Origin: Ascidiella aspersa
Taxonomy: Eukaryota
DNA: 64,000 bases
NCBI GenBank assembly: GCA_963924565.1
Contig: OZ004607.1
Location: forward strand, 2,232,001-2,296,000
Direction: 5' to 3'
The first letter of the stretch is position 1; each line of letters opens with the position of its first letter. Below the pieces are notes generated by a model. The model ran no database searches. It saw nothing but the letters and a program-made list of their open reading frames with translations, and was not told the DNA's origin. Positions 9,309-63,298 of this stretch are shown piece by piece. The translations under genes were made by a program, and so were the position numbers.

Positions 9309-9418
9309 GGTTCGGATATGTTTCTGTCACATTAACTGATGGTGAAACAAGTGCGTATCAAAATGTCTTTATTAAGATGATATCGATTTACTCGACCTTT
9401 TTGGCTTTGAGATTTCTA
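9309..9418 (+). repeat. Dispersed degenerate copy of the hammerhead-containing repeat
   Basis: gtcacattaactgatggtgaaacaagtgcgtatcaaaatgtc...aagatga...tactcgacctttttggcttt aligns with the copies at 58.2-58.5 kb and 62.4 kb. Confidence 0.65.
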
Positions 9419-12049
9419 AAAATTGTAAGGTTTTCTAATAACTTTTATAATTTTTAACTTACTTCAAAACATGAAAGCGCTCTATCTAGGTCACTATTGA
9501 ACGCAAATGCTGTTAAGATGAAATTAAATCTTTCTAATTCGGTAACCTTTAAAGCTTTAAGTCATGCATATTATTAGCAGCAGCTGGTTTAACTTTACGC
9601 CATCGTGATTTGGTTTGACCGACTTTGCCGCGCGACCTTGGGCGCAATTTTTGACCTTGGTTTGTGCTTTTCGCACGCACTTTGTCCCCAGGGGGTGTAC
9701 AGTTACCCCTGTACATGAAAATCGTGACACCCACCCCCGGGTTAGGGGTCACTGCCATACCCCAGGGGTGGGATAATAAGGGGGGTGACTTGTATCCAGG
9801 ACACCCGAGATCAACACGTTTTAGCTGATTGAAAATAAAGCGAAATATTTGTTTATCTGTTTTAACGAACTGTCTTATGTTCGAAGGATTCCAAAATGCA
9901 AAATTAAATATAATTGTTTAAACTCTTACAAGTGTGTCGTGTTTATTATATGCTACAAAACGGAATTTAGTACTTCGAAATTGTTTATTATGCTCTTAAA
10001 GTTACTTTTGTATTGAATTTTATTACTACTCTGACATCCAATTTACGCAACTATTGAAACGAAAAACGAAAGTCTAAAAATATCTTCCATTTCAGTTATC
10101 CTATTCACAATATAAGATTTGTTTTATTCTAAGCATTGCATACTGATTTTTGTTAACCGATTAAATTTTGAGTCACTTCTTTCAATTTTTTAATTTAAGA
10201 AAAAAGTATTTACATGTTTTCAACAAGACCTACAACAGCGTTTGTTTGGTGACAATATCTACGAAATTTCAGTTAAATTTGACTCATTTGCCGAAATTCG
10301 TCAAAACCCCAAATCTACCTCCATTTCCTTAAACCTCTTATATCATGAGTCACGATGGGATGTTTTTCTCGCACAGTTTGTCGCAACGGGGGGTAACTTG
10401 GGTAGGGGGTGTCTTGGGTCGTTGTTGGGGGCTTATGGGGCTGACCCGTCGCGATGCCCACTGGGGCGTAACGACACTTATTCTTGGAGACACGACGTCA
10501 TGTTTTGCTGGTCGCGTATATTTAGAGCAAATCGTAGTCGACTTTTATTAGGTCCTTGACGATATTGGGGAGACAAGTCGTGAAGTGAATGGGATTGAGC
10601 TTTTTCAAGTTGCCGAAATTGTATTTTAACGGCGTTTACGTAAATTTTGTAATAGCCACTCCAGGAATGATTTGTTTTGTGGCCTGGCTTCAGTTGGAAA
10701 TTTTGTCAGGGCGTCTGCGTTTTAACCAACAAAGTACATTACCGAGCGCTGTGTATACTCAGTAAAGTGTTTTTTAAACTTTGTATTACCTTGGCAATTA
10801 CTCTTACTACACAACAGACCAGTTGGTGAAAACCACAATATTATTAGTTATCCAATGGATGACGTGCTTTTAGTTTTTAATGCGTGTCTATACATCTCTA
10901 TTTCAACATAACACACAGTTTATGAACCACTGCTATATAGGCTTCCTCAAAGCAGCTAGATATACAGCATTTGAAATAAAGAAAGATTCGTCATCTGTTG
11001 AATTATTAAGGCTCTGCGACTATTTACATTGTTTCGCTTTTACATCGAGTTGAAATTATTACATTGGCTTCACAAAAGTCTGATTACCCCTTCAATTATT
11101 TAGTGATTCGTTTCTTGAGTGAGTCTTGTGGTCTTGAAATTGATGCAAACCAGTACTTAGAGTTCGTTTTAAATATTCTCGTTCAAGTAATATTGCCTTG
11201 GTAAGGTTTATTATTTCATCTGATGTTAGCAAATTGAAATTTAACAAACGTTCAATTAACACAAATTGAGATAGATATGTTTCGTAATTCACATACCTTA
11301 TAAAGACGATTTGGATACTTTCAGTTTATAGTTAGACGTGGGAAACATATCTAAGCTCTTATAATGTTCAAAAAAGTATTAGGATTTATTCTCAAGGTCC
11401 AAACCTGTTACTTTCCCATGTACTGTTTTTGATATTTATCTGATGTATCATTGCATAGATTTAAGCATTACTACGTCGATAATGGTCATTGTTTTATTCA
11501 AACTTTAAAACAATGTTTAGTATTCTGTATGGCTTTGGTGTTTTCGTTGTTTAAAAGATGTTAGATTTATTGCTTTGGTATGGTTACTGCTTTAGCCCAA
11601 ACGTTTAAGTTGCTTTCTTCATGGAACTCATATTTATTTTTAAAAAACTCCCCGCCTTGTTACGTCACAGCTGTGAATTAGCTTCCTTTGTGACGAGACA
11701 GCGCAGCAAATTGAATATGTCCGAAAGTCATTTACAAGTGCGAGAAACAAACTAAAAACAGCAAACCCCCGTGGCTGCTTTAATTAAATCGCAGCAGTTC
11801 GAGTCATTTAGGTTCGAGGCCTGCCAGTCGGTGCAAAGGGAGCTGCCAATGCGTCACACGCGCTTTGTAAAGGTCGTAAAAATACTTTTCCATTATCATG
11901 GTGTGGGATACTGCCCGGCGAACTTGCAATCTTGACCTCAAAGTGCCGAAATTTTGCTTCCAACTTGACCTGGAGGGACCAGGTGGTTAAAACAGTGGCC
12001 TGGAAATGCTGGAGAAAAGTCGACATTTCATGCGTATTGAAGCCGCCCG

Positions 12050-17200: not shown

Positions 17201-20200
17201 ACATACGGATTAGGTATTTGTACTACTTCTAACCACAACCTCCAGCCATTATACTCTAAAGATATCGTTTAAATTCTTGCAAGTATTGCAATGACGTTAG
17301 TGCAAGTGCGTGTCTGTTTCAATAAGCAGCGCGTTGCAATTTTGTACTTCAAAGTAGCCTTACAACACTGAAAATCTTTGCAGTTTTAAGCGACTGGGTT
17401 TGGCTCTAAATGCCTAATTAAGACGTAAGTGAACATGTTTGTCAAACGGAATTTCCAGTGGTCGCAAGAAGGTATACATTAGCCTTAAAATCGTGAATAT
17501 AATTATTAAAAATTCGGTTTTCGTTTAATTGCGCTTGCGCGACTTTAAACAGCAGTTTCATTTGTTAAAATATCTGCCTCCCTTTTGAATACCTTATGTG
17601 GAGAAACAAACTGTTTTTTCCGTTGAAAATTGATTTGAATCGTTCACACATTGCAAACGCAAAAGCAACAGTCGAAAATATGATTGTTTTGAATAGTTTA
17701 AAAGTAAAAAAACGAAACAGTTTTGTCAAAGTTAAAACGCTTCAAACTTCTCGCTTCGATACCCGGCCCAGCGTTTAGGTCTAGGTCTAAGGAAATACTA
17801 TTGTGTATGCTAAGGAAGTTTTGAATCTTCTGTTTGAGCAGAACTCCGTAAAATTCTCTGAATTGTTTACTAGTAAAAACGACACAGTTTTCTCAAAGTT
17901 TGTTGAAAAAACGCTCTCGCTTCGATACCCGGCTCCAGTGTTCTTATCTTGGTCTGTGCAGGAAATTAAGGATTACGCGCGGGCCGCTTTAGGGAGCCCC
18001 TTGCAACCTGGTAACACACCAACTTCAAAGCGCAATTAGCCCGTGTTTACTGAAGCCAGAGGCAGCCAGGAGACTGCAATGGCGACGGTGGCCCTCTGGG
18101 ACTCTTCCTCAGTGGAGCGATTCCCATATTTAGTCCAGGCGCTGGCTTTGCGTAAGGCGATACACTCAATTACGCAGTGGTCTCTTTAGGGTCGCAAGCA
18201 ACGCAAAGGTAAGCCCAGTCAGTGGTTGCTTGCTGCTGTGAAATGCTGCTTAAGACAGCTGTCGCATTCGGGTCTTTTTGCTTAGTGTAGTCGTCTTTAA
18301 CCGCTTTGCTGCTTTTACGTATAACTGTGAACGCAGAATTTTGGAAAATTTTAGTAACTTATTTAAAACACTGCCATATTACTTAAATAGTGCTTAGAAC
18401 AAACCGAGTTATCAATGGTTTGGTACTAGCGCATAATCCCTTAGTTTGTGCTTTAACAATTGAAATGTACATTTGCCCTGAAAAAGTTGTACTTTCATCA
18501 AATGTTTCACAACCTTGTCTAACTAGTGAAAAATATTTTGCCCTTTTTGCAACATTAACCGTGATGTACTTGTATTACAACAGCGGTTTGTTATAATGGA
18601 AATGTCCCAGGGGGTTTAAACTGTCAGGTGAAACCTGTAAACTCTAACAGCCGCCCGCATTAATACATATAAAAGGGACGGACGAAATAATTTATAACAA
18701 CGCATTTTATATTTTTATTTTTATAATTCGCTACATTTAACAAACCAAGGGCGAAAAGAAGATAATAAAATCAGCGCCTTTATAACTAAAAAATAATTTT
18801 TATAGGTTTTCGCACCAAAAACTTCTTATTTTAACAATAAGACCTTAAAAATATCAACATTTTGCTTTTAAAATTTTATTAATGGTCAGAAGTCTCATTA
18901 TTAAACGTGGATGTTTTTAAGTTTGAATTAACAGACATCACGTTCACACGCTCAATTCTTGATAGACTCTCAAACCACAGCCACACAGTTCGTTATTAAT
19001 AATTCAAGCAAACAGCCTCACCCCTCTCAGCAGCGCACACAGGCTTATCTTGCACTTGAGCACCTCACGATAGTTGCGTGACCAATCTCGGGTCGGAAGC
19101 ACCCTCGCGTTACGTCACAATCGCGCGTGTGACGTCACAAGGAGCGAGACAAATCGCTTCAAACGTCACAGAGTTTCTTGATTAGAAATCGAAGAGAAAA
19201 GAAAGCTTAGTCTGAATTACCACCCAGGTCGATTTGTCGTCTGTTTATCCTGATATACGAGCCGGCCTCTGTTGGAATGCACGGCTCTAGGCCCACCTCA
19301 GTTGCTCTTAATGCTGTTGCGTCCATTTCCGATTGACAACTTCATCCGATTTTCGCATTTCGCCGGCTACAGTTTGTTGTAGGCGGGATGCTTGCCATTA
19401 TTTGCGCGCCGTGAATACTTAGTGATTTGGCTTTTTCGCACCTGAGCTTACCCCGGTTGTCACGTTTCAATTCGGGTAATTTTTTTTAATAAAGTTTGGG
19501 GAAATCATTTTACACCAGGTTTACGATTTTTAATTTTGTCTATTTGTTAGTAATTAATAAGTGTATATTGCAGTCGTTCAGGCAAAGTAATTCCATTTTC
19601 GATTAAAAAAAAAACAAAAAAAAAATACTTAAATTTTGCATTTAATGTATAAACATTTTATAAATAATTTAAATATTTTTAAGGCAATATTTTAACTTAT
19701 TTATTACATGTTTATTCTTCAAACACAGTTAAATGTGATACCAAAGGTAAATCTACTACTTTGACCCACAAAATTAGCATAAAAAAATTAATCTGTTAAA
19801 TTAATCTGTTAAATTAATCTGTTAAAACTGGATTTAAAAGACTGTTTGCCCCAATATTCGAACTCCCAGTCGGTATATTGTGACGAAACAGTAGTTTTCG
19901 AAAATACGATTGTGTTTCGGCTTTATTCCGGTCCCACGAACCCCGGGTGGCAGTCTTCATTTGATGTTGACGTTTTTATTTGCTCTGCTGACCGCAAGTA
20001 ACCCCTGTCATTAGGGGTCAATGACCAGCAAACGTCACGCAAAATGTCGGCGTCTCGCTGCGGTAATTTTCAATTTCCAGTGCATTGTTGTCTGCATTGT
20101 CTCTCGTATTGTCACGGTTATTGTTTGATTGTTGATATATGGAAGGTTGAAACAATGCCTTCATTTATTCAGACGATCGTAAATGCCGGTTTTCGGAATT

Positions 20201-44200: not shown

Positions 44201-47200
44201 TTTGTTATTTTTTGTTTGCTAGCTTGACATTTTTCTGGTGGTTTTAGCTAACTTCTACTTTTAGTGGTATGTTTTGTTTGTTAATGGTAGTTTAGCTAAC
44301 ATTACCCTGTTCGTATAACTGTTGCAAAATGTATCTTAATCCAAGACGAAATTAAATTACACAGTTATCTATAATTTCAAAAAATGTTGCTTTAATTATA
44401 ACTAGTAAATACTGAAAACAGAATTAAAAGTATTTTTTGCTAAAATTATTGATTTTACCAAAATGAAACTATTATGCGCAGTAAAACATTAAAAAAGCTA
44501 TTTATTAATGTTTGGAATATTTATTATGAGATACAAAGGCTCCTTTAAGTAAGTGTTTTCAAATAACAACGTCCCTTCGAACAACAGTTGATTGTTTCCT
44601 CCACAGGGGTTTAGACGGCGTGTCTATGTCATCTGTCTGTATGTTCTCGATGAGGGAGAGCATACAAACCTTGTTCGACACCGGATCCTTCCTTGGAAAA
44701 GCGGAATTTGAATCAAAGTGAGTTAAAACTTAAATCCTAGTATCACTAAAGTAACCTTATTGGTGAAGGATTTGTAGCTTGCTTGCAAAATTCCAATGTT
44801 GAAATAATCTAAAATAGTGATGTGTTTGGTAGTATAAGCAGTACATGCTAAAATACCGACACGAGCGTTTAATACTTATAAAAACCTACTATGCAAACAT
44901 TAATTTTACAGTCAAAATTTTTTCACTTGTAACATCGACAAAAGACAAATTCTAAGCAAATCTATTATTCCACAAATAATGAAAACTTTTTCGAGTTTAT
45001 TAAAGTTGTGTTTACAATTTTTTTAGGCCGGATTCCAACAACGGTTATTCTGGTCGTAGTGAGACAACCAAAGCAGTTCCAATTCCCGACGACTTTACAC
45101 CAAGTCCTCGTCCTGGGAGGTGGGTCGGTGTGTTTTTGATGGTTTAAGAAATAAAATACCACTTCAAACAACATTTTTGGGGTCACATCCTTCAGCGTCA
45201 TATTTTAGTATTATCAAATCGGAACCGATAACCGATACAAAAGAATATCGGTACTCGTCCAGTCGTCCGATACTAGAGTGGTCTCGATATGATTCTAAGT
45301 TAGTTTTGCATTACACCCATGTTTTGCGATCTAACTCACAGTTTTCTATCTTTAAACGCAAATTTTGGAGAATAATTATATTAAAATGGAAGATGAATAT
45401 GATTCATAGCGCAACAGACAATTTCCGACCTACACCCTAGAAATCATTATTAATGCGTTTATCATTTTTTTTTATCTTTTTTTAAAATCCCACAATTTAA
45501 ACTGACCTATATAATGCCGCGCTAAATAATTCATTCCTACACACTACATTCCATAAAGTTGCCCAACAGAGGTAAAAACGCCACGCTCCAGAAATTACAA
45601 AAACACTTTAAATATCGTAAATATTTACTCAGTCGCACAATACCTGTGTTAAGTCGGTAAACGTGCCCTGTGTTTTATGTACCTTGTTAACCTCATAATC
45701 CCAAAAGCCGTCGCGGCCACCTACTGTAAAATCGTCGACCGTCTGGCCCCGAGTAACCTTTAGACTTTGTCGTGACGATGCGAACTCTGGTAACCTTTGA
45801 AAGCACCGAACTGCCTTGCATTTTTAAAACGCAATAGTTGGATGTTGCATACTCACAAAATATAAAAAAACATGATTTTTATCTAAAGAATATATTCCCT
45901 GCCAACCCTGGTCCATACAAACCAAAAAAGTTGTTAGGGGTCCTCGAAAAAAGTTTTAATAACCTTCTTAATCTATCACATCACATAAATTTGCACCGCA
46001 TTTCAACTTAACGCACATTTTTGACTAAAATAAAATTGGTTGTTACATGTATGATTAATTAGTTAAATGCTGTAATGTTTTGATTTAGTTCTTAGTCACA
46101 TTAACTGAACATAATACAATTTTGTATAAAAACCTCGTTCTACTCGACCTTTTTGGCTTTAAAAAGCTACATTACACATACATAATAAACCAAATTATAA
46201 GCTACATTACAGATGCATAATGAACCAAATTATAAGCTACATTACAGATGCATAATGAACCAAATTATAAGCTACATTACAGATGCATAATGAACCAAAT
46301 TAATTGCCGTGTTGTTATTCCAGCTGCCACAGGCAAAAGAGTGACGAAGAGTTGGCCTTTATCAAGAAATACCCGCTCATGTACTCGTCAGTAAAGCCAA
46401 TCTACAACCAACCAATCTTCACAAGCGAGTCAGAGTGAGTTGCTTCAACTTGATTTATTGCCACAAACCGATTTAACATTGTACAGTGGCGACAACTAGG
46501 CCACATTATGACGGGCGATTTCGCGGCGATCAGCGAAATCATTTTGACGTCATTCATGAAAGCTAATGTTTTGCTTACGTAATGGGTGCTAAATATGTCA
46601 TCGAGTTTCAAATTGGTGGCGTTCTTTATCGGATTGTAGCGTTGGTTAATCATTTAAAAGCATGACTGTAGGAGATTTAAAAGTTATTAATATTACTAGC
46701 TTAAAATATTTAATGTTCTATTGTAATTAGTTTAAATAACTTTTAGGTTAGGTTTCTTACTTTAATCGCCATAAAGCCATACACCTAAATTTTACAAAAC
46801 ATGCTACAGTGTTATATTTTACAGTGAACACCGTTTACCACATTTTTAATATGACCTGTTTTTTCTTCAGTATTCGCGTTACTCAAATAGCGCTGGATAA
46901 TAACGCCGGGTACCACAACAAGAAGGTGCTGTACCTTGGAACTGAAAAGGGATCCATTCTTAGAGTGAGGACTCGTTTCGAGTACACAGAGGTAAGTTTG
47001 AGGAGGTATAAACATAACATACAGGATAAGCAGTAATACTAAAGATTAATGTAAATCACATTTCAGATATTTGTAACAGGGTTGCCACTAAGTGTTTGGA
47101 ATGTCTTTTATTGATTTGTGTATTCCAGAGTTTTGGAAAACCCTAAAAAAAGCCCCGAAAGGGATACTATGTCACATATAAAACAAACACTAAGTGCATT

Positions 47201-50200
47201 GGAACACAATGGTTAGAGGTGTAATAAGACGTAATAAGAATATAAAAGTTTTTTATTAAAAAAGTTCACAGAATAATACCTACTTCTGTATGGGCTTTTA
47301 TATTGCTACTATGTATTGTACAACTACAACCTCCATTCATTATCTTACATTTATTCTAAACTTTCACAAAATGTTGCTCGTTCTTCTGTATTGGCTGAGC
47401 TATTCGTACTACGACTGAGTGCATTCTTAACATTTTTTCTTACTTTAGGGTCCCAAGGCGATTTTGCTGGAGGAGATGGCATTTAGCGATTCCGATAAAT
47501 GCACGAATCTCGCGTGCACGGTTCGATCCCTGCATGTGACCAGACCGGCCGTCGGGAAACCAAAAGCGCGTAAATCGATGCCTGGAGGTCCTAACGTGTT
47601 TGTGGCATTCACTGACCGCATTACCATGGTCCCTGTGGCTGTGTGCATTTCATACGGAAAGGAAGAGTAAGTTTTGCTTGTTTAATATATACTTTAATAT
47701 TTGAGTTGACAGCTGAACTTTTAACACGGTCCGTAAATGTAAAGCATTTGGGCGTAATAGCTTAATGTTGCAGATCCGAAGCCTGTATGTAGTATTGTTT
47801 AAATGTTCCATTGAAACAATGCGCATTATTGACGTCATAATAGTTGGAGGTAGTAACTAAACTCCGGAGTTATTAAGTTACACAAAAGTGCGGGTAAAAT
47901 TGTATGTTTCGAATCTAAAAATTATGTGGTACTGTTTAACGACAAATGTATTAAGATCATGACAAGCTTTCGCACAATTGTGCTTTATCAGGTTAAAGTA
48001 GAAATGAATTAAACAAATACAGTTACCAACAAATAATTCTATGTTTGGGATATTTCTTTAGTATCCGCTTTGCTGAAATTTAACAATAATTATTCCCCAA
48101 CCTTTATAAATTCTGCACTGCCAAGCGTTAATGCTTTATTGCAAAGGACATTAAATTAAAACTTTTGTTTCAGTTGTTGCAACGCCGACCCAGATTGTGG
48201 TTGGGGAAGACAAGGATGTCAGCAAAGAAACGCAAGCAACTAGTAAGTTCTAACAAATCGTTGAGTATAGGCTCCCTTTAGACAATAGTATTACAGAGAC
48301 TTGCAGTCCAACTACAGTAATTTAAATAAAAAATATAAAGTAAAGATGTTCGGATATCATATGATCTTTTATATTTTTATAGGTTTAAAACAGTAACGTA
48401 CCTAAATACAAAAAAATGGAAGATCGCTTAAAGAGACGCTTTATAATTTCTATACACTGACACAAAAAACTGACAATGCTATGATACGTGTTTCAACAAT
48501 ATTGTAAAACAGCACAAACACATTGATAAATAGACTGATAAATTGAAACATACATAATTTCATAAACACACTGTGTATTCTGTGATTCAGCCCCTTTGAA
48601 CTGTACTTGTAGGCTAATAATTGTACGCTTATTTAAAATTAAAAGTACCCCATTTTCTATGCCATGTTGGCAGCAAGTAACGTTTACTTTTACCCCTCCA
48701 CAGCAATTCGCTTCCAGCCATCAACAACCTTGCTTTAGTTCCAAGCAAATGTGAGGTTCCACCAACACCACCTGGTAAGTGAAACCACCACTTGCTGTCG
48801 TAAAGCCTTCTGTCGTGGATCTGCCTTTGCAAGGCCAATAACTAGCACAGAATTGCAGTGTTCGAACTGCTAGCCGTCTTTATGTACCTAGCAACTCGAA
48901 AACTGTATTTTTGCACTGGTTTTTGGCTTTGTTAAGCACATCCACGATGTTATGTTGCTTTTTGTAAGGCCTATTGGTCGCTTTGCTTTTGAATGTGTAG
49001 AATCAGAACGCAGGTCTAGGATGTTGATCTAAATCTTTTCCGATCCCTGCGTTCGTTTTGTGCTATTTAGAAGCAGAGCGACCGGGAAAAAATGCTGTAT
49101 CTGCTTTTTGTTGTAAATGTCATTTATGTAAGAAGTTTTCTAAACCCACATTATGCCAGGTTTACGCGAGCAACAACATGGCCATAATTTGTCTCTCAAA
49201 ATGGCCTTCAGTCTAAAGTGGAATGTCCCCTTTTTTAAAAAAGGTTTTTTTTAATAGCAATATTAAACTAAGCCATTGAATTGCTATTTGAAAATGTCGC
49301 TTTAACCCTGGCATAATGTATAGGAGCACCAAAATCAAAGGCTGACATTTTGTGAAATGTAACAACTCTTACTTGAAAATATTTATGAACATAGATACAC
49401 GAACTCTATATTGTTTTAACCTAGCTAAAATGTTTCATGTTGATTCGCTATGTAGCGCCTTAACCTAACTCCCAAATAGCTTGTATTTATTGGTGAAAAT
49501 CCTAAATATCTTCAAGCATGTGTGTAATAAATGTATAGTGGTGCCTTTGCAAGCTGTTCTAGGTTTATTTGGTGAATGCATGAATCAAATCGACTGTAAT
49601 CTCGTCATACGTCATCAACTTTGCATGGTGCATGGTCACGTAATACTAATGACGTCACACTATGGTGTTCAAAAGTACCAAGATTGTTTGTGTAGCGTTT
49701 TAAATGTTTTAATTTTAAAGGAATACGTCATAATGGGTATTGTTCTAATAACATTGAATAGTTTTTTTGTTATGGTTTAAACTAAGAATAATACCATATA
49801 AAAATATTAAAAAATCGAAAAAAGATATAAAACTACAAAAAACAAAATATTTTTAAAAGCAAAAATTCACAAACATATTGAAAAATAAAAAAAAATGGAA
49901 AATTATTTTAAAACAAAATTAAAGAAAACAAATATTGAATAAAAAAAGGCATAAAGTCAGCTTATGATTGATAAAAAAGAAATAAATTGCATAAAAGTAT
50001 GTAATCTATTAGGAAATTGTGCATTCAGCGGTGTGTTGCGGTGGTAGAGTCGGAAAAACACAATTTGTGTTTCGTCATCGCTGTTGTGACGTAATATCAC
50101 GTAACAATCGTCTACATCACGTACTCAGAATTAGCGTTCCAACAACTTAAGCAACACACCGCTGACTGTATATTCGCTAAGGTTTTGTACAAAAAACGCG

Positions 50201-53200
50201 CGCGTTTCATAAAAAAGCGATTGTTTTACATCATTGTCATCACAAATAACAATGTCGCGCGAAAAATCGCTTTTCGCCATTTTCATTCTTTTAAGTTTTC
50301 GTCTTTTTTTCGCTCCGTCGCCGATTTTCGGTTGTGACCTTGAAAAACGGAAGCAGCTGAGTTTGCGACCTTTGTGACCCGGTGCCGCTGCCTAACCAAA
50401 AGCACCAGGTATGACGTAACAATGTGAGTTGCTAACAACAAACCTTGCACATCAAACACAACCCATATTTGGTGTAGTTTTCTTAGGCCTAGATATTGCA
50501 AGGCAGAATCAGGAAATGGCAGCTATAAGAAAGTTAACAAAGCAAGATAAGTTTTCAGTTTTTAAGCTCTTAAAATCAATAATATTTGCAGAATATTAAC
50601 TTCCGAGATTAAGAATATTTGTATCTGGAAAGCGAAAGATCTCTCAGTGAGTTTAGATAGCAATTATTTAAAGCAACATGTTTGCCAGTTGTAAGCTATT
50701 TTGCATATTCCAGAAGCGTTATATTTTTGTGCTTCCAATGCATGTTTTGGGTTTAAATTTTCCGCGGTGAAGTTGGTGAAAGCGCATGTGACCAGTCAAG
50801 TCAGCCAAGGTTACAAAAAACCTACAAAAGAACTATTTGAAGGTAAAAGAGCCGTATTTTTGCCAGGTTTGCATTCTAGTAGCCGCAACTACTGTATTTA
50901 TACCGAGTATACTTTTTGCATGTTTTGTAGAAACAGAATTTTCATTTTCCGATTCTGCTTTGCACATTATTAATCCGACTAATATCACCTTTTTAGTTCC
51001 TTACCATTTTTACAATCATAAACAAAACCCTAATAACTCTATAATAACTACAACTTGTGTTTTTATACAAACTTGAAATTCCGAATCGTTTTTTCACGCG
51101 CGCCTTTTTCTCTTCCAGTTATCAACTGTCCCAAGACGCCTCGCTGCGCCGACGTGGCCAAGCGTGACGCCAACCATAGTGACGTCACACAATCGACGAC
51201 GCCCCGGGTCGGATGCGCCCCAAAGTCCCCAGGACGCAAGAGACCCCAAGTGGACAGAAGAGCGACTCCAAGAAAGGATAGGACTCAGAAAGATGACCCG
51301 GGAGCCTCTCATAGTTGCCAGGATGCTTCCTCCAGAGAGGAGAAGACTGCTGTGATGCAGAGCGACGAGATGCTAATGGGGCTCTTTCGGGAGCGTATCC
51401 TTCCTCTTGTGTCCTCCTCCTTCCACGAGACCCTTCACTCACTGCCGGAGCAGTTCTCGGAGCGTCAGCGCCACAACTTGATGTACCAGTTGCAGGAAGC
51501 TTTGGCAATGACCACAAACCTTGTTCTCCGTAATCACAGGCAGGAAAGCTACCTGGGGACTTGCACAGTGAGCAGCTTGACACATGCCTACCCTCTTCTG
51601 ATGCGCGAAGTCGCTTTATGGCACGAGAAAGCCTTGGAAAGTATGGTGGCTGATGATATGATGAACGCTTGTTGGACTCGATCCACCAGCAGTGGATCTC
51701 CCTGCGTTGGAACGGTCTCCATCAGCATTCCACTTGCTCCTACTCTATGGGAGCCCCTCAAGAACTTGATGAGCCGCGATTTCGACGCCATTTGTGACGT
51801 CATACCGGGCGCGAGCGCTCAGGCGTCCAACTGCAGCCACCTGGGCGCCGTGGCTTCGTGCAAAGACGGACGATTCTCCAACTCGGCCAGCTGCCAGCCT
51901 AAGGAGTGTCAGTTCGTTGGGCTTCCAATGGACGTGATGGCCTTCTTCAGGCACGTGAACGATTGCCAGAAGTTCCTTAAACCAGGAGTCCAGCCGCTTT
52001 GGAAAGACGTTAACGTTACCTTGAGCCCAGTGAACGCCATACGCGGCCATTTGGAACTTTACCTGAGCCGCGACCATCCATTTCTCATACGTTACTCGCC
52101 TGTACCTGAGAAAGTGAAGATCTCTTTCCATTACAAAGCCGTTCGCGATTGCGACCTTAACAACGCGTTGTGTAATGGCAAGAGGAAGGGATGTAACCCG
52201 GATTTGGAGGACACAATGAACACCTGGTTTACAAAGGTTGTGGGAAGCCTTAAGTACAAAAAACCGAAGAAGTGCTCGCGTCAGCTCGCAAAGTACAAAC
52301 AACAGCTTCAGCAGAGCGACAGTCAACGCTCACAGATGACCGGGCAGACCTCCAGGATCAGAAACAGGGGGCAAGTATCAAGATCAGCATCCAGAAGCAG
52401 AAGACAGGCTTATGACGCTCGCGGGAGGCGGCAAACCTTCAGAAGACCCAACCAGGTTCATCCATCGATGCCTAAAAAATGCAGGTACATCAAGAAGTCC
52501 GCTCCTCGCTTAAAGAGCCGTCTCTGGCCGGATCTTGTCCTCAGAGCACAAAATAGAGGAGGAGAGTACAGAGGAGGAGAATACTCTGACCTTCCGCAAA
52601 GAATCAACTTCTACTCTCTGGAACACCTCCGGGACTTTTTCGACAACAGATGCTCAGTCGCTCCTCCACATCCAAGTTTCGCGACCTTCGGAAAAGCTGT
52701 TCGAAGGAAGAAGATAAAGAGTGAAGTGAGGGTTTTCGTGTCGCGCGACATGCCCTTTGTCATTGAGAGGATTCCCACTCGAAACCGCATCACTTTCAAG
52801 TATTTCACGCACAACGTGTGAAACTTTTAAACACTGAAACTCGTTTTTTCGTTTTTTGTTTTTCAAAAAAACAACTTTGCCCCTGGTAGTTTGCGCTTTT
52901 TTCACTTTCCAACTTGTTTTGGGAAGTTTTTCTTCGAAAACGCTAATTAGTTACTCATTTTTGAACAAGGTATTTAACTGAGATTAATATTATCTAAAAA
53001 TTAACAGTAAAACGCATTTCAAACTTCCAGGGGCGAAGCTGCTTTGAATATTAAGAGCAACATTTACCAACCAACTCATTCTTTTTCCTCTGTTATTTAT
53101 TTATTCTTTTTCTCTTTTTGTCGTTTTCTCTTTCTGTCAAGTTCCTGTCTTAAAGCGCCTTATGAAAGAAAAAAAGCCGCTAGTGTCTTCTCGTTTTTTT

Positions 53201-56200
53201 CTTCTCTTCCGCCGATAAATGTCCAATATATATTCACTCTATATATATGTTCTGCCACTGTGACGTCATAAAGTATTGCGGACTACTTGTTTTTGTTTGA
53301 ATTCAAACAAATACAAAAGAGGCCGACGATTTTTCTTTCTACCTCATCAAAATCAAAACAAGGACAGACACCACATCACTTTAGCTTAAATTATTGGAAA
53401 ATTTAATCATTTAAAATGAAGGATTACCCATAATGTTGAATTCAGTATAAAATGTAAAATTACATAAATTAAAGCAATTCATAAATTTATCAGTAATATT
53501 GGGGCTTAGAAAATACAAAAACTAGTCCCAGTTTGGAATTGAAACAAACTCAAATTTTTCTCCTAAATATTATAATGCTATAAATAAAACTATTTATGAA
53601 TTAGTCATTATTGGATCTTTGAAACATATCTCTATAAAATTTTCCAAAATCCTAACCTTCGTCAGAATAGGTTTGGGAAAATATAGAGATTTTGAATTTA
53701 CAGATCGGGATTTAAAAAACATTATATTGGACAAATATCGTAAGAAGTTATAAATCGCTTTCTGTCCTTTATATTACACCTTGCAGCACACTCTGCCTTT
53801 TTTACGATCACATTTTAACCTAGATATTATTTTACTTGCCAAACACATATTCTTACCTCGTTTTTAGTCATTCAAGGTCTGATAAAGCATTTGTAGCAAA
53901 AAATGTCTACTTTTTTAACAAACACGTTGCTGAACTGATTTTTTACACTGAAACCTTGAACATGCAGTACGAGGCCAATTTATTGCAGTTCTACATTATA
54001 TGAATTATCGTAATCGTTACTATTGTGTAGTGTTATCTCATACCTTTATCATGTCGTTCTGCATTTTGTTCTTATCATCGTTTTTAGCGTTATTCCGAGG
54101 GTCGCTAGTTCGATTCCCGGCCCTTACTTGCATCACACTTTATGACGTTTGCCAAACTTCTTCACCACCGCGGCGGTTGCCATGGTTACGCAGCATCGTG
54201 CGTCCACGTGCCTGTAGGGGATTCCCCTCCGCGAGTTATTATTATTGTTAGGTGTTGTGTTTTTTTCTCTTTTTACGTTGTTTTCATGCAAACGCGTGGT
54301 TTAATAAATCGCGAACGAGCTCAATTTTTTTGATGGTGTTTTATTAGCAAAGTTCAAGTTGAGTAAATAATATTATAGTGTTGTTGCCTGGAGAAAATGG
54401 CCAATTTCAATTAAAAGCGGCTGATTTTTTGTAAGAACTTAGGTAAGAAAATGGCAAACAGCTACTTACTGAAACGGGCATAAAACAAAACCAAATACCA
54501 ACATGGTTTAAGAGTTTTCACAATAAATCAAACTTCAATTAAAGAAAGTAATTAGGAAATGGCATTATCATTCTTATCACAATCAATTCTAAGATACATT
54601 TAATGCGAAATAGGACTTTTACAATCCCGTTACACTTTCTGATTGTCACTGTTTCAATGCTTTAAATATCTGACCTTTTCTCTTTAGATCAAGATTCAAA
54701 AGTGTGCAACAATGATTATAAAGCTCGTAAAATAATGGTTGTCAGAAAAACATGTTTTAGTAACATTTGTCTTTTTAAACCTTATCTTTTCATGTTTGGT
54801 CTAGCGAGTTCTCTGTTTGTCTCCATTTATAATCTATTTTCGTAATACATACACTTTTGGCATTTTGGGCAAAAAGTAGATTTACAATGCACGACGCCAT
54901 TTATCGGTAGTAATTGCAAAACCATTGTGTTTCCTTTAGATATATCCGATACTTTTATTCCGATACCAAGACCCGATATTTCAAACAAAAACCCGATACC
55001 AAGTTACGTCATTAATATGTCCTAACGAGCAATATAACTTAAATTGAAACGTTCAAAAGTCTTTGGTTATTAAAAAGGCAAAATTGGCTTTAGCGTTAAG
55101 AAGTTTAATTTTTATCCAATTAAGTTCATTCATGTTCACCTTTCAAGCTAAAAATCGCTGCGTTAGATCGCAAATCAATCTGGAATTTTGTATTAATTTG
55201 GTATCTTATCGGCGCCGATAACACAGAGTATCGGACGATACTACCACTTGGTATCGGGTATCGGCTCCGTTTCGATATTAATTCGGTATCGGATCGGCAC
55301 CAATTTCTCCGAAGTATCGGACGATAACTACCACTTAGCATCGACTGTCAATCCTCTACTATCGGACATCCTTAGTTTCTATACACGAAATCATTTCCAT
55401 TTCACAACTTACCAATAAAAAAACTGTCTACGAGTTTATAGGCGCTTAACGCCATGTAAAATAATTGCCCCTATTAAATTAAGGCTTGAGTTATTAAATT
55501 TTATCGCCATATTCAGCAATCGTCTCTTCGGCTTCGAGTAAGCCTAAACCAATTTCAAGTAAAGTCAAACCACCACCCGAAGTGGGTCAAAGTAAGTTGG
55601 TTTGTCGCTGAATCACAACTGCTAAGTGGCTTATTGATTTGAGTGGAGCTTTTCGCAATTCACCAGAGTCTTTAAATAAAATGCTAATTTCATTTTGTTG
55701 TTCGTTGCTGTGCGAATTTGGTTTGAAAACCTACATTGTTAGTTTCAGATAAAATATCGCCTTATCATTTTTACTAGCAACCGTTAACGTAACTAAGTTG
55801 GTAATATGATGTTATCAACAATCCATGTAAAGATTTTTTTTACATTTTTCTAAGTAATTAAATGTTTATTTTAAAGTTTAAAAAGCAACTGATCAAAACT
55901 AATGTGGGTAAAATTTAGCCAATTTGAGTTATGTTTTATAACAAACTTGTACAATCACATGGCATGAAGGTATTGCATGTTTTAGTAATTTTCCTTATTA
56001 GTAACTGTAGTTGGATGCCTATGTATTAAATATTAAATGAAGAAACCTAATCGTTTTTGCAACATTTTTAATTAAATTGCAAAAAAAAACTTTTTATAGA
56101 AGTTAGCATTTTTAATTATTTTCGTAAACTAATTATTCAATATTGAACGCCACCTAAAATGTCGGTCAAATTAACCCTCGGGCGTCGCAACCATATTGCG

Positions 56201-59200
56201 TATCCATGAATTGTAATGCAACAAGTTCAAGTGACCTAAAATTAAATTAGTTCAAGCGGTTCGCACAACCGTTGCTGAGCAACCATCTATACTCCCCTCC
56301 AAAACCTGCTTTTTTCTTCTTGCAGACGAGGAGGGCTCGACGCAGAGCCTAGCAACTGGATCCAGCAGCACTCTCGTGCTCGTGGTGGCTTGCGTCCTTA
56401 TGCTTCTACTCGGGATGGCTTTTGGTGCGCTTCTGATGCATTGCAGACAAAAGAGCAGAGGAGAAATGAGGTGAGATCAGGCATAAAATTTGCTGCCCGT
56501 GATATTTGCAGGCAAACTGAGCTCAAGTTTGCAATCCGTGATAGACACAGGCAACGCGTACATGAAGTGTTTGTTACAGCTCGATTTTATCAAGATTAAA
56601 TATAATTATTGTAATAACCCTAAACTTAATTATAAAAGCTAAAATTAAAATGTGGGTTTGGCACAATTTCACACCTAACTAGTGTTGCAATACCCAACAA
56701 TTTACAAAACCTGAATAATAAGAGTTTTGTTTCAAGGCATAATATATCAGCGTACGAGTCGAGCTTTTCAAAGGATCAAATCAGTTTTGGCCAGACCGCC
56801 ATTTGTATTTATTCCATTTGTACTCAATCTCTGTTCCTTGCTATTTGGCATAAACCAAGGTACCGCTGATCAAATGTGCCAAGCCTATAAACTGCGCTTA
56901 GCAAACAATTGGGTGAATTCCAGCAGTTAATTACAATCGTACGCACCAAAAACTAATCGACTCCCTGGATAAAAAAATGTTGAGTTTCTATGCTAAAAAA
57001 ATGCATTATCTCCACTATAGATGTCCAAAAATATCACATCGGAGTCGATACCCGATACCAACTGGAAGTATTATTACTTTCGATACTAGGGTGGTATCGG
57101 TGCCGATCCGATACCGAATTAATAAAGGAATTTCAGCCATAATTTGCGATATACAATATAGTTTACATTAAAAGGGTGATGGATTTATCAAAACATAGTA
57201 TAGGTTAACATTTGGAGGTAACTAAACGTCTTTGACGCCAAAGCAATTTTAATCTTATAACCTTAAAATGCCTCGAAACGTTTTGATTTTATTTAATTCG
57301 CTTGTTTAAGCATAACCAATTAATTATTTTTAAAACTCAATGTAATGTGCCTTAAAAGAGGAAAATTGAAACTAATTTGCCGTTTTTTTTTCAACATTGC
57401 TGCGCTTTCTAAGTGAGAAAAGCGGATTTCGGAAGTGGGTTTAAAAACGCATGTTGTTGTCGGCAAAGCTTTCTGAAAGATGAAAAACAATTCGAAATAA
57501 CAACGTTTTGTTTACATCGAGTTCCTTGCATCTTAAAGCTTGTCGTGTCGTTTAAAAACTGCTTTTTGTTGTTGAAAATATTGCCGAAAATGATCTTCTT
57601 TCTTCATAACGATAGCTTGATGTTTATTGCGTTTGCCTATTTGTTGTCGGGTATTCCCCCTGCTTACTATGCATGTCCGCTACAATGTTGTTATCAAATA
57701 AATAAGTATTACTATAATTATATCTCTTAAAAGGATTGATAAAGTAAAACAGTTGCGTTTAAGTCAGAATAACTCTTATATAAGTCAGCTATGAATAATA
57801 AAGTATTAGTATTCATTAAACGTTTAGTGTCATGTATATTTAAGTAACATATGTCAAGTGACGTATCGCTACACAAAATGGATTTAATGGATCAGTGCGA
57901 TGTTCGGCTATTTAATTTCTATTCGCAACGAAAGAGAAATGAGTAAGACCACAATGTCAAAAATCGCTTGATTTTTATAACAACTATACAAACCTTCCTG
58001 GCAGCAATAATTTGCGTTTTAAAACTGTTGTTATGTTCATTTTATTTAATATATTCTCAGTGTGGATGTTTTTTTGAACCAAGTAGAATAGTTAACATCA
58101 ATACAAAGCATAGCTTGAACTGTGTCTAAACTAAATCGAAACAACTAGTTTTATAACACTACAAAATTTAACAAACAAAATAAAGTACTTTTATAAGTGA
58201 GGTTTGGATATACCTCAGTCACATTAACTATTGAATATGCAGGAACATATCGAAAGCTCTCTTATCAAGATGATTTTGATCTACTTAAACTATTTGGCTT
58301 TCACATTTATTATCAAGCTGCATTGCAGATCCGCGCATAGTGCAAGTATATTGGTATCCATTACGGTATAACATTTAAATCAACTGAAGATGATACAAGT
58401 TCGTATCGAAACGTATTTATCAAGATGCTGTCGATCTTCTCCTTTTGGCTCTGAGATTCATTATTAAGCTATATTACAGATCCGTGCATAGTGTACCTCA
58501 TTCCATTTAAAATATTTAAAATATTTAAAAAAGCTGGTAGATTTGCGTGCTTGGCGCAATTAAGTAAATCTTTTTGCCGTTAGGTTGTTCACTTTTTTAT
58601 ATCCTTTTTTTATTTTTGCCTAAATTGATTTAAGTAAGACTAACTGATGATGATGATGCAAGTTTGTACCAAAATCGCCTTAAAATGTCGATTTCCTCTA
58701 ATTTTTCCGCTTTGGCATTCATTACTGGCTACTTTAAAAAAAAGCTACTTTACAGATCTGTGCATAGTATATGTAAAGCACTCTACTGGTGATTGTATAA
58801 TAGTGTTGAACTGCTCTTGGTGATTTTATAAGAAGAAAGATGAATTACAGTAGAAAAAGAGTGGCCTTCGCGTTTATCTCAACCTTATTTTACCGCACTG
58901 AAGATGGCATCAGCACTTGCCGAAACGTATGCAAATAAAAGAATGAATCTTTTATCATTTATTTGGGCCAATCTTTTTCTACTGAAGATTATGAACAGAT
59001 CCGTGTTACTGTTTTGTGTTCCAAAGTTGAACTAGTCTTCTGCTTTTATTCCAGGATGCCTGTCAAGGGAAGCTACCAGCCTGACAGCAGTTCCCGTGTC
59101 GAGTTAGAAACGCTCACTTCTCAAAACAAGTCGGGGACGAACACACAGATCGACTACCTCGAAATGGGACGGGGGCCTGGAAGGGTAGGAACTCTTATTT

Positions 59201-62200: not shown

Positions 62201-63298
62201 TTGTTAAATTGAAAACTCAAAAATATATACTGACATATTCATGTGTGAATCTCACAATTTTAGTTTAAATTCACAAACTGGTCAAAGCATATAAGCATGG
62301 TTTAATTTAATAACTCCGTAATATTATTTGGAAAATCTTTTAGACATCATATTGATAATTAAGACGTTTCGATACGAGCTTGTATCATCTTTAGTTAATG
62401 TTATACAAGCTCGTTTTGAAACGTCTTAATTATCAAGATGATGTCGATCTACTCGACCTTTTTGGCTTTAAATTTATTTTCAAGCTACGTGTTTAGTTTA
62501 TTTTAAAATCTTCGCCTAAAAACGCAATTTTTTTTTTGTTTTTAGTGTAGCTTTCTAGTTAACTAAACCGTACTTTAACACGTGTTCTCCTCCCCCAACA
62601 TAAGCATGACAACTTACCTTGCAGATCCCCGCTCTATCACTCCTCCTCCTCTTCCGATCAAGCAGAAGAGCATCCGACTTCCTCCTGTGCTCCCACCTCC
62701 ACCAGTTCTCGCTCCTAAACTCCCTCCTGCTCCTGGAGGACCCAAGGATCAGAGCAACTCAAACAACAACAATGCTTTTCCATCTCCTCCAGCATCAATG
62801 CTACTGAGGTCATCTTCAGCAGAGATCAACTTCCCTCCTCCGCCTAAACAAGACCCTGAAGAAAAGAGTCCTCCGTCCTCTGCAAGATCCCCGCCTCCGT
62901 ATCGGCCACCTCCTCCAAGAAGAGGATCTAAATCTTCCTCCGTATCTGACTCGCCAACGATCTTGTCACCGCGCTCACCTCCTCCGTTTAAACCGCCTCC
63001 TCCTAGAGCAAAGGGAATCAAGAAGTATCCCACCTTCTCCGATCCACACGGCCAAAGGATGAAGCCTCCAGTCCTTCCGAAGTCCAGAGCTGCTCTTGCT
63101 AGATCCGCATCACTTAGATCTCCTCCTGCTCACGCGAACGACCCCGGAACAAACACGCTTCCTCTTCGTCACGAAGGCATCCCGGAGAGGATCGTGACTC
63201 CACGACAGCGTCCTCCGTCGTTCCGACACAACAGTAACGTGAAGACTCCCACCAAGAATCCAGTCCCTGTAAAATCCCCCATTGTTCCCGGACTTTGA
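13843..63298 (+). CDS. SEMA6: Class 6-type transmembrane semaphorin, 22 coding exons, 1156 aa predicted (signal, Sema, PSI, TM, Pro-rich cytoplasmic tail)
   Basis: Hand-spliced exons are all bounded by AG/GT with consistent phases. Sema hallmarks: [96 protein letters not shown] motif [10 protein letters not shown]. One TM segment and no Ig domain. The paralogue/class label is inferred from architecture only. Confidence 0.9.
15111..15312 (+). CDS. SEMA6: Semaphorin exon 2 (VTSQRTF...[27 protein letters not shown])
   Basis: tttctcttAG acceptor, AG|GTTAGT donor (phase 2); LDFQ and LLVSGR motifs mark the start of the Sema domain. Confidence 0.88.
17706..17967 (+). repeat. Local duplication of ~90 bp (17706-17796 and 17874-17967)
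   Basis: aaaaacga.acagtttt.tcaaagtt...tctcgcttcgatacccggc...ggtct..ggaaat occurs twice. Confidence 0.7.
19785..19823 (+). repeat. Tandem repeat, 3 x 13 bp (aaattaatctgtt)
   Basis: Perfect copies. Confidence 0.9.
21189..21476 (+). repeat. Tandem repeat, 3 x ~92-96 bp
   Basis: cacgtt..gtcgtttattaaagtatgttcgtcat..agttcttagcgact..gatggttcttt recurs from 21189, 21281 and 21376. Confidence 0.9.
35029..35094 (+). repeat. Short dispersed repeat (ctgtatgggcttt...actacaacct.cagccat)
   Basis: Related copies at ~17222-17260, ~47286-47345 and, inverted, ~2545-2611. Confidence 0.6.
39113..39200 (+). repeat. Tandem repeat, 4 x ~21-22 bp (att.aacctgg...ccaaaact)
   Basis: Visible directly in the sequence. 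Confidence 0.8.
40229..40352 (+). CDS. SEMA6: Semaphorin exon 3 ([10 protein letters not shown]...[21 protein letters not shown])
   Basis: tttgacAG acceptor completes the AG|A Arg codon; donor CCG|GTTAGT; conserved L-x-W...C pattern. Confidence 0.9.
41233..41334 (+). CDS. SEMA6: Semaphorin exon 4 ([34 protein letters not shown])
   Basis: Diagnostic CxNYIR and [10 protein letters not shown] motifs; AG / GTAAGA boundaries, phase 0-0. Confidence 0.95.
41647..41785 (+). CDS. SEMA6: Semaphorin exon 5 (RHQLESGPG...[26 protein letters not shown])
   Basis: ttttatAG acceptor, T|GTAAGT donor; open frame, phase 0-1, bridges exons 4 and 6. Confidence 0.85.
43020..43127 (+). CDS. SEMA6: Semaphorin exon 6 ([35 protein letters not shown])
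   Basis: ccacAG / A|GTAAGT, phase 1-1; LFSG..D.LG motif. Confidence 0.9.
43385..43479 (+). CDS. SEMA6: Semaphorin exon 7 ([31 protein letters not shown])
   Basis: DKVYxFFRE motif; AG / GTGAGT, phase 1-0. Confidence 0.95.
43956..44188 (+). CDS. SEMA6: Semaphorin exon 8 ([16 protein letters not shown]...[16 protein letters not shown]...FATFTTP)
   Basis: Most conserved Sema block; ctctAG / TG|GTAAGT, phase 0-2. Confidence 0.97.
44607..44717 (+). CDS. SEMA6: Semaphorin exon 9 ([36 protein letters not shown])
   Basis: SxVCxF motif; ccacAG / AA|GTGAGT, phase 2-2. Confidence 0.92.
45027..45119 (+). CDS. SEMA6: Semaphorin exon 10 ([30 protein letters not shown])
   Basis: PxPRPG motif; ttttAG / AG|GTGGGT, phase 2-2. 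Confidence 0.92.
46094..46175 (+). repeat. Dispersed degenerate copy of the hammerhead-containing repeat, internally deleted
   Basis: agtcacattaactgaacataatacaattttgtataaaaac...tctactcgacctttttggcttt..aagctacattac. Confidence 0.6.
46164..46302 (+). repeat. Tandem repeat, 4 x 35 bp (aagctacattacagatgcataatgaaccaaattat)
   Basis: Copies start at 46164, 46199, 46234 and 46269; the last three are essentially identical. Confidence 0.95.
46324..46434 (+). CDS. SEMA6: Semaphorin exon 11 ([36 protein letters not shown])
   Basis: LxFIKxxPLM motif; ccAG / GA|GTGAGT, phase 2-2. Confidence 0.94.
46871..46991 (+). CDS. SEMA6: Semaphorin exon 12 ([40 protein letters not shown])
   Basis: TQIAxD..VLxLGTExG motif; cttcAG / GAG|GTAAGT, phase 2-0. 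Confidence 0.94.
47449..47666 (+). CDS. SEMA6: Semaphorin exon 13 ([10 protein letters not shown]...[23 protein letters not shown])
   Basis: LLEE and VP..C motifs at the end of the Sema domain; ctttAG / GA|GTAAGT, phase 0-2. Confidence 0.92.
48174..48242 (+). CDS. SEMA6: Semaphorin exon 14, PSI domain ([22 protein letters not shown])
   Basis: DPxCGW PSI motif; tttcAG / TA|GTAAGT, phase 2-2. Confidence 0.93.
48704..48774 (+). CDS. SEMA6: Semaphorin exon 15 ([23 protein letters not shown]), last exon shared by both predicted isoforms
   Basis: ccacAG / G|GTAAGT, phase 2-1; open frame containing a Cys that may close the PSI domain. Confidence 0.85.
51119..52821 (+). CDS. Large intronic coding exon (567 aa, unknown domain, basic C-terminal third); probably an alternative terminal exon of the semaphorin, otherwise a nested gene
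   Basis: 588-codon stop-free frame, GC-rich relative to its flanks. Strong acceptor ctttttctcttccAG at 51117-51118 is in phase 1, in frame with exon 15 (G|TT = Val). TGA at 52819-52821. Confidence 0.75.
54938..55371. mobile_element. MITE-like element rich in CCGATAC/GTATCGG sub-repeats
   Basis: Left end has ccgatac repeats and right end has gtatcgg repeats ending in tatcggacatc, i.e. imperfect terminal inverted repeats; no ORF. Confidence 0.6.
56326..56470 (+). CDS. SEMA6: Semaphorin exon 16, transmembrane exon (…[34 protein letters not shown])
   Basis: About 22 hydrophobic residues followed by basic residues; ttcttgcAG / AG|GTGAGA, phase 1-2. Confidence 0.9.
57017..57315. mobile_element. 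Second copy of the CCGATAC MITE-like family, inverted relative to 55015-55280
   Basis: Its reverse complement aligns with 55015-55280 (e.g. tattaatt.ggtatc..atcggc.ccgata, ttggtatcgggtatcg.ctccg). A short fragment also occurs at ~45218-45290. Confidence 0.6.
58201..58770 (+). mobile_element. Three degenerate tandem units of a ~150-bp hammerhead-containing repeat (Penelope-like/retrozyme-like, non-autonomous)
   Basis: Shared blocks cacattaact, gtatcgaaa, tatcaagatg, tttggctt, acagatccgtgcatagt recur at ~58201-58345, ~58375-58495 and ~58640-58770. Confidence 0.6.
58382..58417 (+). ncRNA. Minimal type-I hammerhead ribozyme motif, intact core, weak stem I
   Basis: AA-CTGAAGA-T-GATAC(aagttc)GTATC-GAAA-C-GTA-TT: 5-bp stem II and all core nucleotides present; stem I reduced to 2 bp. 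Confidence 0.55.
58885..58938 (+). ncRNA. Minimal type-I hammerhead ribozyme motif, intact core
   Basis: GCA-CTGAAGA-T-GGCA(tcagcact)TGCC-GAAA-C-GTA-TGC. Stem I GCA/TGC extends to TTATTT/AAATAA across a 4-nt bulge; stem II is 4 bp; stem III is the palindrome ACGT; cleavage triplet GUA at 58927-58929. Confidence 0.7.
59055..59184 (+). CDS. SEMA6: Semaphorin exon 17, cytoplasmic ([10 protein letters not shown]...[12 protein letters not shown])
   Basis: ttccAG / AGG|GTAGGA, phase 2-0; GC-rich open frame. Confidence 0.83.
59819..59924 (+). CDS. SEMA6: Semaphorin exon 18 ([35 protein letters not shown])
   Basis: ttctcAG / G|GTGAGA, phase 0-1. Confidence 0.83.
60726..60774 (+). CDS. SEMA6: Semaphorin exon 19 ([16 protein letters not shown])
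   Basis: gatAG / AG|GTCAGT; 49 nt, phase 1-2, exactly what is needed to join exons 18 and 20. The acceptor is weak. Confidence 0.7.
61179..61264 (+). CDS. SEMA6: Semaphorin exon 20 ([28 protein letters not shown])
   Basis: tatctAG / G|GTAGCT, phase 2-1. Confidence 0.78.
61534..61608 (+). CDS. SEMA6: Semaphorin exon 21 ([25 protein letters not shown])
   Basis: Long T tract then AG / G|GTAAGA, phase 1-1. Confidence 0.82.
62343..62488. repeat. Head-to-head inverted pair of the hammerhead-containing repeat (43-bp stem, 17-nt loop)
   Basis: 62343-62385 is the reverse complement of 62403-62445 with 3 differences; the plus-strand copy continues to ~62488. Confidence 0.85.
62358..62399 (-). ncRNA. 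Minimal hammerhead motif with a G5A core substitution (predicted inactive)
   Basis: Minus strand reads ATTAA-CTAAAGA-T-GATAC(aagctc)GTATC-GAAA-C-GTC-TTAAT: perfect 5-bp stems I and II, GUC triplet, one core change. Confidence 0.55.
62625..63298 (+). CDS. SEMA6: Semaphorin exon 22, terminal proline-rich cytoplasmic exon
   Basis: ccttgcAG acceptor in phase 1 (G|AT = Asp) into the 238-aa ORF; FPPPP, LPPPP and PPPY motifs; TGA at 63296-63298. Confidence 0.87.

Follow-up and report, generated by a model that had tools for sequence, protein, structure and literature searches.

The window analysed here, 64,000 nt of Ascidiella aspersa DNA (contig OZ004607.1, 2,232,001-2,296,000, forward strand), contains seven segments of a short repeat, termed family A, that carries a hammerhead ribozyme motif. 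The repeat is almost certainly the pseudo-long terminal repeat (pLTR) plus tail of a Penelope/Poseidon-type retroelement. Most of its short copies are probably, with a chance of roughly 70%, dead-end run-off cDNAs from the 5' end of an uncleaved, probably capped element mRNA, and this interpretation is stronger for the sister family C than for family A itself. Positions within the repeat are numbered from the hammerhead position C3, which was set to 0, with negative numbers upstream.

A sequence-only reading of the window had proposed an abundant family, either a retrozyme-like non-autonomous element or the terminus of a Penelope-like element (PLE). The abundance was borne out. A 32-nt core pattern of family A had 435 exact matches genome-wide and a 28-nt tail pattern had 405, with none for the reversed-pattern controls, and a BLAST-type genome search with family A yielded 1893 candidates; all three counts are lower bounds. 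Family-related DNA also occurs in sequencing runs labelled as two other organisms.

The search for copies that adjoin open reading frames (ORFs) for a reverse transcriptase (RT) and a GIY-YIG endonuclease (EN) was successful, as longer copies run upstream into both. Directly upstream of the repeat lies a frame reading VVYKL.CSCGASYIGQT...EH...RH, whose stop codon is found 95-107 nt before C3. Farther upstream, RT frames of 433 and 419 aa were recovered (RVT_1 32.1 bits at a cut-off of 29.6, E 1.2e-7). The EN was assigned by motif, as Pfam gave no GIY-YIG match on the 113-aa family A piece; in a sister ORF, the Pfam GIY-YIG match (E 0.00075) fell short of the cut-off. Coding sequence also makes up the 3' half of the repeat: 27 protein letters can be read from an AUG at +41, and these align with the N-terminus of an intact sister ORF with a score of 50, which none of 2000 shuffles reached. 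In the copy that starts at 58188, the subsequent codons KYIGIHYG match KYVGNHYG in the sister ORF. The layout of family A is, therefore, an ORF stop, an untranslated region of about 100 nt with a TATA-like box (-38), an initiator-like (Inr-like) site (-7), the minimal hammerhead (0 to +31), the AUG (+41), and the first 26 codons.

The closest outside proteins are about 830 aa long and 28-39% identical, with none above 39% among the 120 listed of 183 hits in a search that took in proteins of 759-2165 aa. Judged by its 28-39% identity to the best matches listed, family A is a new sequence family within the known PLE class. The genome also harbors sister families B (about 50% identity) and C (47%) with open frames of 843-880 aa and intact full-length copies, as well as at least four more distant PLE families (D-G; L352-L366) with minimal hammerheads. 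The linkers between RT and EN of families A, B, and C do not contain a CxxC or CX2-5CxxC zinc finger. A CX2-5CxxC finger is present at this site in Neptune and Nematis, and thus its absence fits the Penelope/Poseidon clade as defined in PMC8557442.

The anatomy of the insertions was analyzed with 159 loci (29 best hits, 60 core-anchored, 70 tail-anchored), of which 140 remained after removal of 19 same-locus or segmental duplicates. The majority, 98, were head-to-head inverted pairs, while 31 were single tailed arms, 10 were single short arms, and 1 was of another type. In 95 of the 98 inverted insertions one tailed arm was paired with one short arm. This distinction results from two 3' end points, at about +88 and +120: among 243 arms ending at +70 or later, 127 ended at +115 to +120 and 86 at +85 to +95. 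The same pair of 3' ends recurs in families B, C, D, and E. The unit is thus about 95-130 nt long, shorter than the approximately 150 bp that had been estimated by eye. Direct repeats of at least 8 bp, i.e. target site duplications (TSDs), flanked 81 of the 140 loci compared with 14 of 416 mismatched-flank controls, and their length was mostly 10-16 bp with a mode of 12 bp. The inversion junctions comprised 100 distinct pairs, only one of which was common to two loci, showing that the short copies did not amplify as a lineage of their own. A layout of tail, inverted pLTR, and TSD has been described for PLEs (PMC3846280, PMC8557442), and together with the continuity into RT and GIY-YIG it settled the identity of the repeat in favor of the Penelope terminus.

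The 5' ends were not uniformly distributed. In 89 tail-anchored family A arms, the number of 5' ends per 100 nt at risk was 0.73 at +60 to +36, 0.71 at the cut site (+35 to +29), 2.0 at +28 to +1, and 1.3 at 0 to -4. It rose to 12.3 at -5 to -9 and 10.9 at -10 to -13, and was 0.38 at -14 to -40 and 1.2 at -41 to -150. The raw counts were 14 per 114 nt (-5 to -9), 6 per 55 (-10 to -13), 3 per 420 (cut site), and 1 per 262 (-14 to -40), and only 5 of the 89 arms passed -86. The 102 core-anchored arms gave 6.9 per 100 nt at -5 to -9 versus 1.4-1.7 at 0 to -4 and beyond -13. The modal 5' end, found in 18 of 138 cases in a strict walk, was -7, and the sequences preceding the -7 ends are unrelated between loci. 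This position is the A of the Inr-like site, which we take to be the A of the initiator consensus YYANWYY, and lies 31 nt below the TATAAG at -38. An alignment artefact was considered as the source of the -7 ends, as the first reference had a 2-nt insertion there; the spike persisted with three other copies and upon inspection of the junctions.

The sharpest 5' pile-up was observed in family C, where 34 of 48 ends fell on -3 or -5, with a TATA box at -35, 30-32 nt upstream of them. Furthermore, 26 of these 34 ends were preceded by a G where the element has a T, in comparison to 1 of the 14 other ends (Fisher 1.2e-5). Even without the seven Gs that may have come from the adjoining arm, 19 of 27 remained (P 3e-6 against 0.27). 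An untemplated 5' G is an accepted mark of a reverse-transcribed cap in L1 (PMC9341517).

Several results weigh against the run-off interpretation. The G signal of family A is weak (10/24 versus 18/84, P 0.045, with positions picked post hoc), and in family B a G was found at 4 of 6 ends, which are scattered over -13 to 0. A start-site prediction that had been fixed beforehand failed in the more distant family D, with 5 of 30 ends spread over -8 to -15 and 1 G; the family D reference reached only to -54, and 12 apparent ends there are artefacts. The same prediction failed in family E, for which no 5' pile-up was present in 33 arms. The family A cluster covers 9 nt at the same place as the 5' strand of stem I, and a structure barrier may account for it. 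The TATA-like box of this family, TATAAG, is imperfect, and of the 104 arms extending to C3, about half (50) go beyond -13. The 97 candidates scored, out of 434, included no intact family A ORF, and DNA and protein searches yielded only pieces; in having no intact master found in this assembly, family A appears to differ from other Penelope/Poseidon PLEs. Finally, one RNA run with the same species label (about 6% examined, 985 reads) had no pile-up of ends at the start or the cut site. The pLTR occurred on both strands in this run and 93% of the reads continued into other sequence; the reads thus reflect many pLTR copies embedded in host transcripts and leave start and cleavage undecided.

One long family A copy (L065, G000:C7:14683000-14691000) is split by an element whose 640-aa frame, by eye, we take to resemble a hAT transposase.

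The hammerhead had been announced as perfect, with 5-bp stems I and II and a GUC site. The perfection did not hold, because helix III is lacking and only the palindromic ACGU of a minimal, dimer-type motif is present. The intact copies do read CUGAAGA, a U, a 5-bp stem II, GAAA, and CGUC with a possible 5-bp stem I. However, stem I does not form in the predicted monomer: the fold contains stem II and a rival hairpin that spans the cut site (z +0.5 to -1.0), and the occupation of the cut site by this hairpin would explain the lack of stem I. The canonical type I features, i.e. a helix III with loop, a 6-bp helix I, and a loop 1-loop 2 contact, were not found. The minimal features were: the CUGANGA / GAAA / UH core, an unpaired base after A9, G10.1-C11.1, the palindromic ACGU, and paired stems I and II. 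An Rfam search of the window gave no hammerhead match at E<=1. The miRNA-precursor matches that Rfam gave on the hairpin at 62341-62447 were all below the gathering score and are explained by inverted arms.

A test for covariation had been suggested; in a permutation test over seven PLE families of this genome, the stems pair despite sequence differences. Pairing held for 32 of 35 pairs in stem II (permutation mean 21.6, P 0.0002) and for 23 of 28 in stem I (mean 14.9, P 0.003); the search pattern imposed the hammerhead core and partly the first stem II pair, and the pairs were tallied by script, as MAFFT misaligned the cores of 10 motifs. In family C the core variant U3-A8 replaces C3-G8. The covarying stems suggest that the motif is likely under selection in the master elements. 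In the stubs, it is not selected: the core is intact in 13 of 30 arms, and its divergence is 32/330 (9.7%) in comparison to 73/900 (8.1%) downstream, with one row unaligned over the core.

Minimal hammerheads in metazoan PLEs were described by Cervera and De la Pena in 2014 (PMC4209133). The motif of family A agrees with that description in the absence of helix III, the palindromic 15.2-16.2, the single unpaired base between 9 and 10.1, G10.1-C11.1, and a helix I of 4-5 bp. Further points in common are the U3-A8 variant, found here in family C, the occurrence of dual motifs on opposite strands at distances of 100-700 bp, and a prevalence of single motifs tied to truncated PLEs. In contrast, stem II has 7-8 bp there and 5 bp in the predicted family A motif.

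The family also has much in common with EN-containing Penelope/Poseidon PLEs such as D. virilis Penelope, Adineta Pen2a, and Anolis Poseidon PAc, in which an RT is followed by a C-terminal GIY-YIG domain. Shared features are a pLTR that contains the first codons, an optional 30-40-bp tail at one end, an adjoining inverted 5'-truncated arm, a TSD of about 10 bp, and a promoter or start site within the pLTR (PMC3846280, PMC8557442, PMC2377424). The sharp 5' pile-up at a start-like site is a difference, as it is not described in the consulted parts of these sources. In addition, the AUG of PAc lies inside stem II, whereas that of family A follows the cut site by 10 nt.

The anole Poseidon protein nicks and extends both strands, initiates internally, and needs ORF RNA beyond the start sites, while hammerhead cleavage is dispensable (Frangieh et al. 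2024, PMC11167929). Family A resembles this system in its pair of 3' end points, which lie within the first ORF codons at a distance of about 32 nt, in the extension of both strands, and in that there is no sign of ends at the hammerhead cut. The anole results were obtained in vitro with truncated templates, whereas the genomic copies suggest frequent in vivo run-off to a capped 5' end.

We propose the following route to the short copies. The GIY-YIG domain would nick both strands of AT-rich DNA, and the RT would start internally on the RNA at two sites, as it does in vitro for anole Poseidon. As the start region would sit at the transcript's own 5' end, with the PLE start site lying within the pLTR (PMC2377424, PMC8557442), the cDNAs could reach a maximum of only about 95 and 127 nt before running off at the cap. 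Two cDNAs, one per nick, would then be joined at their far ends to yield the hairpin insertions. Long copies could result from priming at the downstream pLTR-ORF junction in a tandem master, which would need read-through, and any activity of the hammerhead would be confined to the master transcript, in dimeric form or assisted by protein. Neither the TATA-like box nor the downstream ORF region is present in the stubs, and their junction pairs are nearly all distinct; therefore, they are likely dead on arrival, without further mobility.

The alternative closest to this view is that the stubs are ordinary 5'-truncated PLE insertions, primed at the 3' pLTR, and that the folded hammerhead (the edge of stem I) makes the RT stall or change template, so that the pile-up would mark structure rather than the 5' end of the RNA. 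We regard this as unlikely, although it needs no new assumption, 5' truncation being a textbook trait of PLEs (PMC8557442). It would account for the position of the family A cluster (-5 to -13), which abuts the 5' strand of stem I, for the raised number of ends within the motif (27 per 1328 nt at +1 to +28) with fold-back junctions at the stem II hairpin, and for families D and E, which have no start-site spike. However, it explains neither the additional G of family C, found at 26 of 34 ends, nor the single-base sharpness of these ends. In this family, no more than 2 contiguous pairs make up stem I. The predicted monomer fold has no stem I, and an RT copying from 3' to 5' would be expected to stop on the 3' side of the stem and not once past it.

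The remaining explanations are far less probable than a stall at stem I. That a short unit is transcribed, cleaved by the hammerhead, circularised, and re-inserted in trans, as in a retrozyme-like non-autonomous element, is very doubtful. Hundreds of short copies do exist next to few long ones (5 of 89 tail-anchored arms beyond -86), RNA reads contain pLTR sequence, and retrozymes are reported to derive from PLE pLTRs (bioRxiv 10.64898/2026.07.22.740005). Animal non-LTR retrozymes are likewise short, AT-rich, akin to PLE pLTRs, and equipped with a hammerhead of type I topology (PMC7229834; bioRxiv 10.64898/2026.07.22.740005), but family A has no canonical motif, its ends do not coincide with the cut site, and head-to-tail monomer arrays with a hammerhead per unit were absent from all 140 loci. 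As the core also decays like its neighbors and the junctions are nearly all distinct, the retrozyme part of the sequence-only reading is not supported. Still less credible is a hammerhead that cuts the template and thereby fixes the boundary of the copies: the covariation in seven families indicates that the motif is likely functional in masters, but 5' ends at +29 to +35 occur at the background rate, most stubs hold sequence from both sides of the cut site, and uncleaved RNA is the main substrate in the anole element (PMC11167929). The least probable origin is a miniature inverted-repeat transposable element (MITE) or another DNA transposon with terminal inverted repeats. In its favor, inverted repeats between TSDs are frequent among the insertions, but the two ends differ by a 30-bp tail, arm lengths are freely variable, and the TSDs vary over 10-16 bp; a DNA transposon is refuted by the continuity with the RT and GIY-YIG ORF.

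The element class, minimal hammerheads, the tail, and inverted arms have already been described, and as mobile DNA the repeat is ordinary. What the analysis adds concerns mechanism, namely the 5' pile-up and the extra G of PLE stubs; the run-off or copied-cap reading was not found in searches of an open-licence library. How PLEs replicate and what their hammerhead does are treated as open questions in the field (PMC11167929, PMC4209133). If the extra-G pile-up is a copied cap, genomic stubs would provide base-level start-site maps of PLE families without RNA data. If the run-off reading is true, the template would be uncleaved in vivo, which would also explain why short copies far outnumber long ones. 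For a more general proposal, we consider the chances evenly balanced: on its own uncleaved mRNA, Penelope RT might routinely prime about 90-125 nt below the cap and copy through it, so that most genomic PLE stubs would be "strong-stop"-like run-offs that map the transcription start. The hammerhead would then lie in the first 40 nt of the mRNA, and its cleavage, which would remove a capped leader just before the AUG, could be a decapping or translation switch rather than a means of monomer release. The intact sister masters in this genome, whose frames span 843-880 aa and which include one tandem array with five pLTRs, offer test material for the run-off reading. This family C array (L367, L368; G000:C9:23483000-23500000) has its pLTRs at 2669-2671-bp spacing with 816-aa frames and is a candidate source of long copies.

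The features of the window are listed in the table. All seven segments of the original count were confirmed as family A, with 66-90% identity to genomic copies. It had also been stated that the window is devoid of RT and EN coding sequence, and tblastn indeed returned only N-terminal stubs of two sister families. The copies had been described as single, tandem, and inverted. The arms at 62343-62401 and 62403-62488 are inverted and together form a 43-bp hairpin. The near-tandem copies starting at 58188, 58379, and 58629 differ in their end points and do not make up a regular array.

Table. Family A copies and related PLE features of the window. Ranges with signs are positions relative to C3; percentages are identities to genomic copies.
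Feature	Position	Strand	Remarks
Family A pLTR stub	9263-9415	+	-74..+79; core decayed; 75-77%
Family A pLTR stub	46072-46164	+	-33..+76; internal deletion of 17 nt; core decayed
Tail-segment repeat, 4.0 x 35 bp, head-to-tail	46164-46302	+	about +85..+120, the stretch separating the two 3' end points
Family A stub	58188-58342, extending to 58367	+	-42..+113 (58188-58342); core decayed
ORF codons KYIGIHYG	58344-58367	+	past the usual tail end; continuation of the 58188 copy
Best family A copy of the window	58379-58497	+	-5..+117; 5' end within start-site cluster, 3' end at tail; 88-89%
Minimal hammerhead core, predicted	58384-58415	+	CUGAAGA, single unpaired U, 5-bp stem II, GAAA, CGU-A
Old family A stub	58629-58771	+	-15..+115; core decayed; 66-67%
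Family A inverted arm of a head-to-head insertion	62343-62401	-	-7..+48; 5' end precisely at modal -7; core G5 changed
Second arm of the same insertion	62403-62488	+	+9..+92; stops at the short 3' end, without tail
Family B stub	58873-59027	+	-24..+123; hammerhead core starts at 58898; absent from the list of the sequence-only reading
Family B inverted arm, 19 bp	58848-58866		belongs to the 58873-59027 stub
Family C head-to-head insertion	34916-34975, 34976-35097	-, +	each arm starts at -5/-4; core variant U3-A8
Family C head-to-head stub	26700-26732, 26749-26826	-, +	
Further family C pieces	2545-2665, 17207-17261, 47199-47416		

Only one of the seven window copies has kept the whole hammerhead core; the other six lost or lack core bases. 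In this predicted motif, 4 of 5 stem I pairs are formed, the site is GUA, and the putative cut would follow 58415. A scan of the window for CUGANGA-stem-GAAA returned two sites versus 0.26 expected per shuffle (50 shuffles), namely the family A copy at 58379 and the family B core. A TSD search around 10 window intervals revealed nothing convincing, with two weak candidates. The tail-segment tandem could be explained by repeated priming or jumping between the two start sites or by later slippage. The copy at 58188-58367 overruns the usual tail end by about 25 nt into the ORF. The same overrun occurs at two or three further loci and may point to a third, minor start site.

Family B had 284 pattern matches genome-wide, and open frames of 848 and 880 aa were found at G000:C3:20.86 Mb and C7:11.30 Mb; family C had 1990 pattern matches. 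Outside these families, a 594-aa open frame at 51037-52821 (+) had no Pfam match and no usable Atlas hit, and a proline-rich 239-aa frame at 62579-63298, about 90 bp after the 62343-62488 insertion, had no Pfam match. Two inverted-repeat pairs spaced about 1.3-1.8 kb apart (55238-55319 with 57030-57124, and 463-544 with 1827-1908) are probably other MITE-like repeats.

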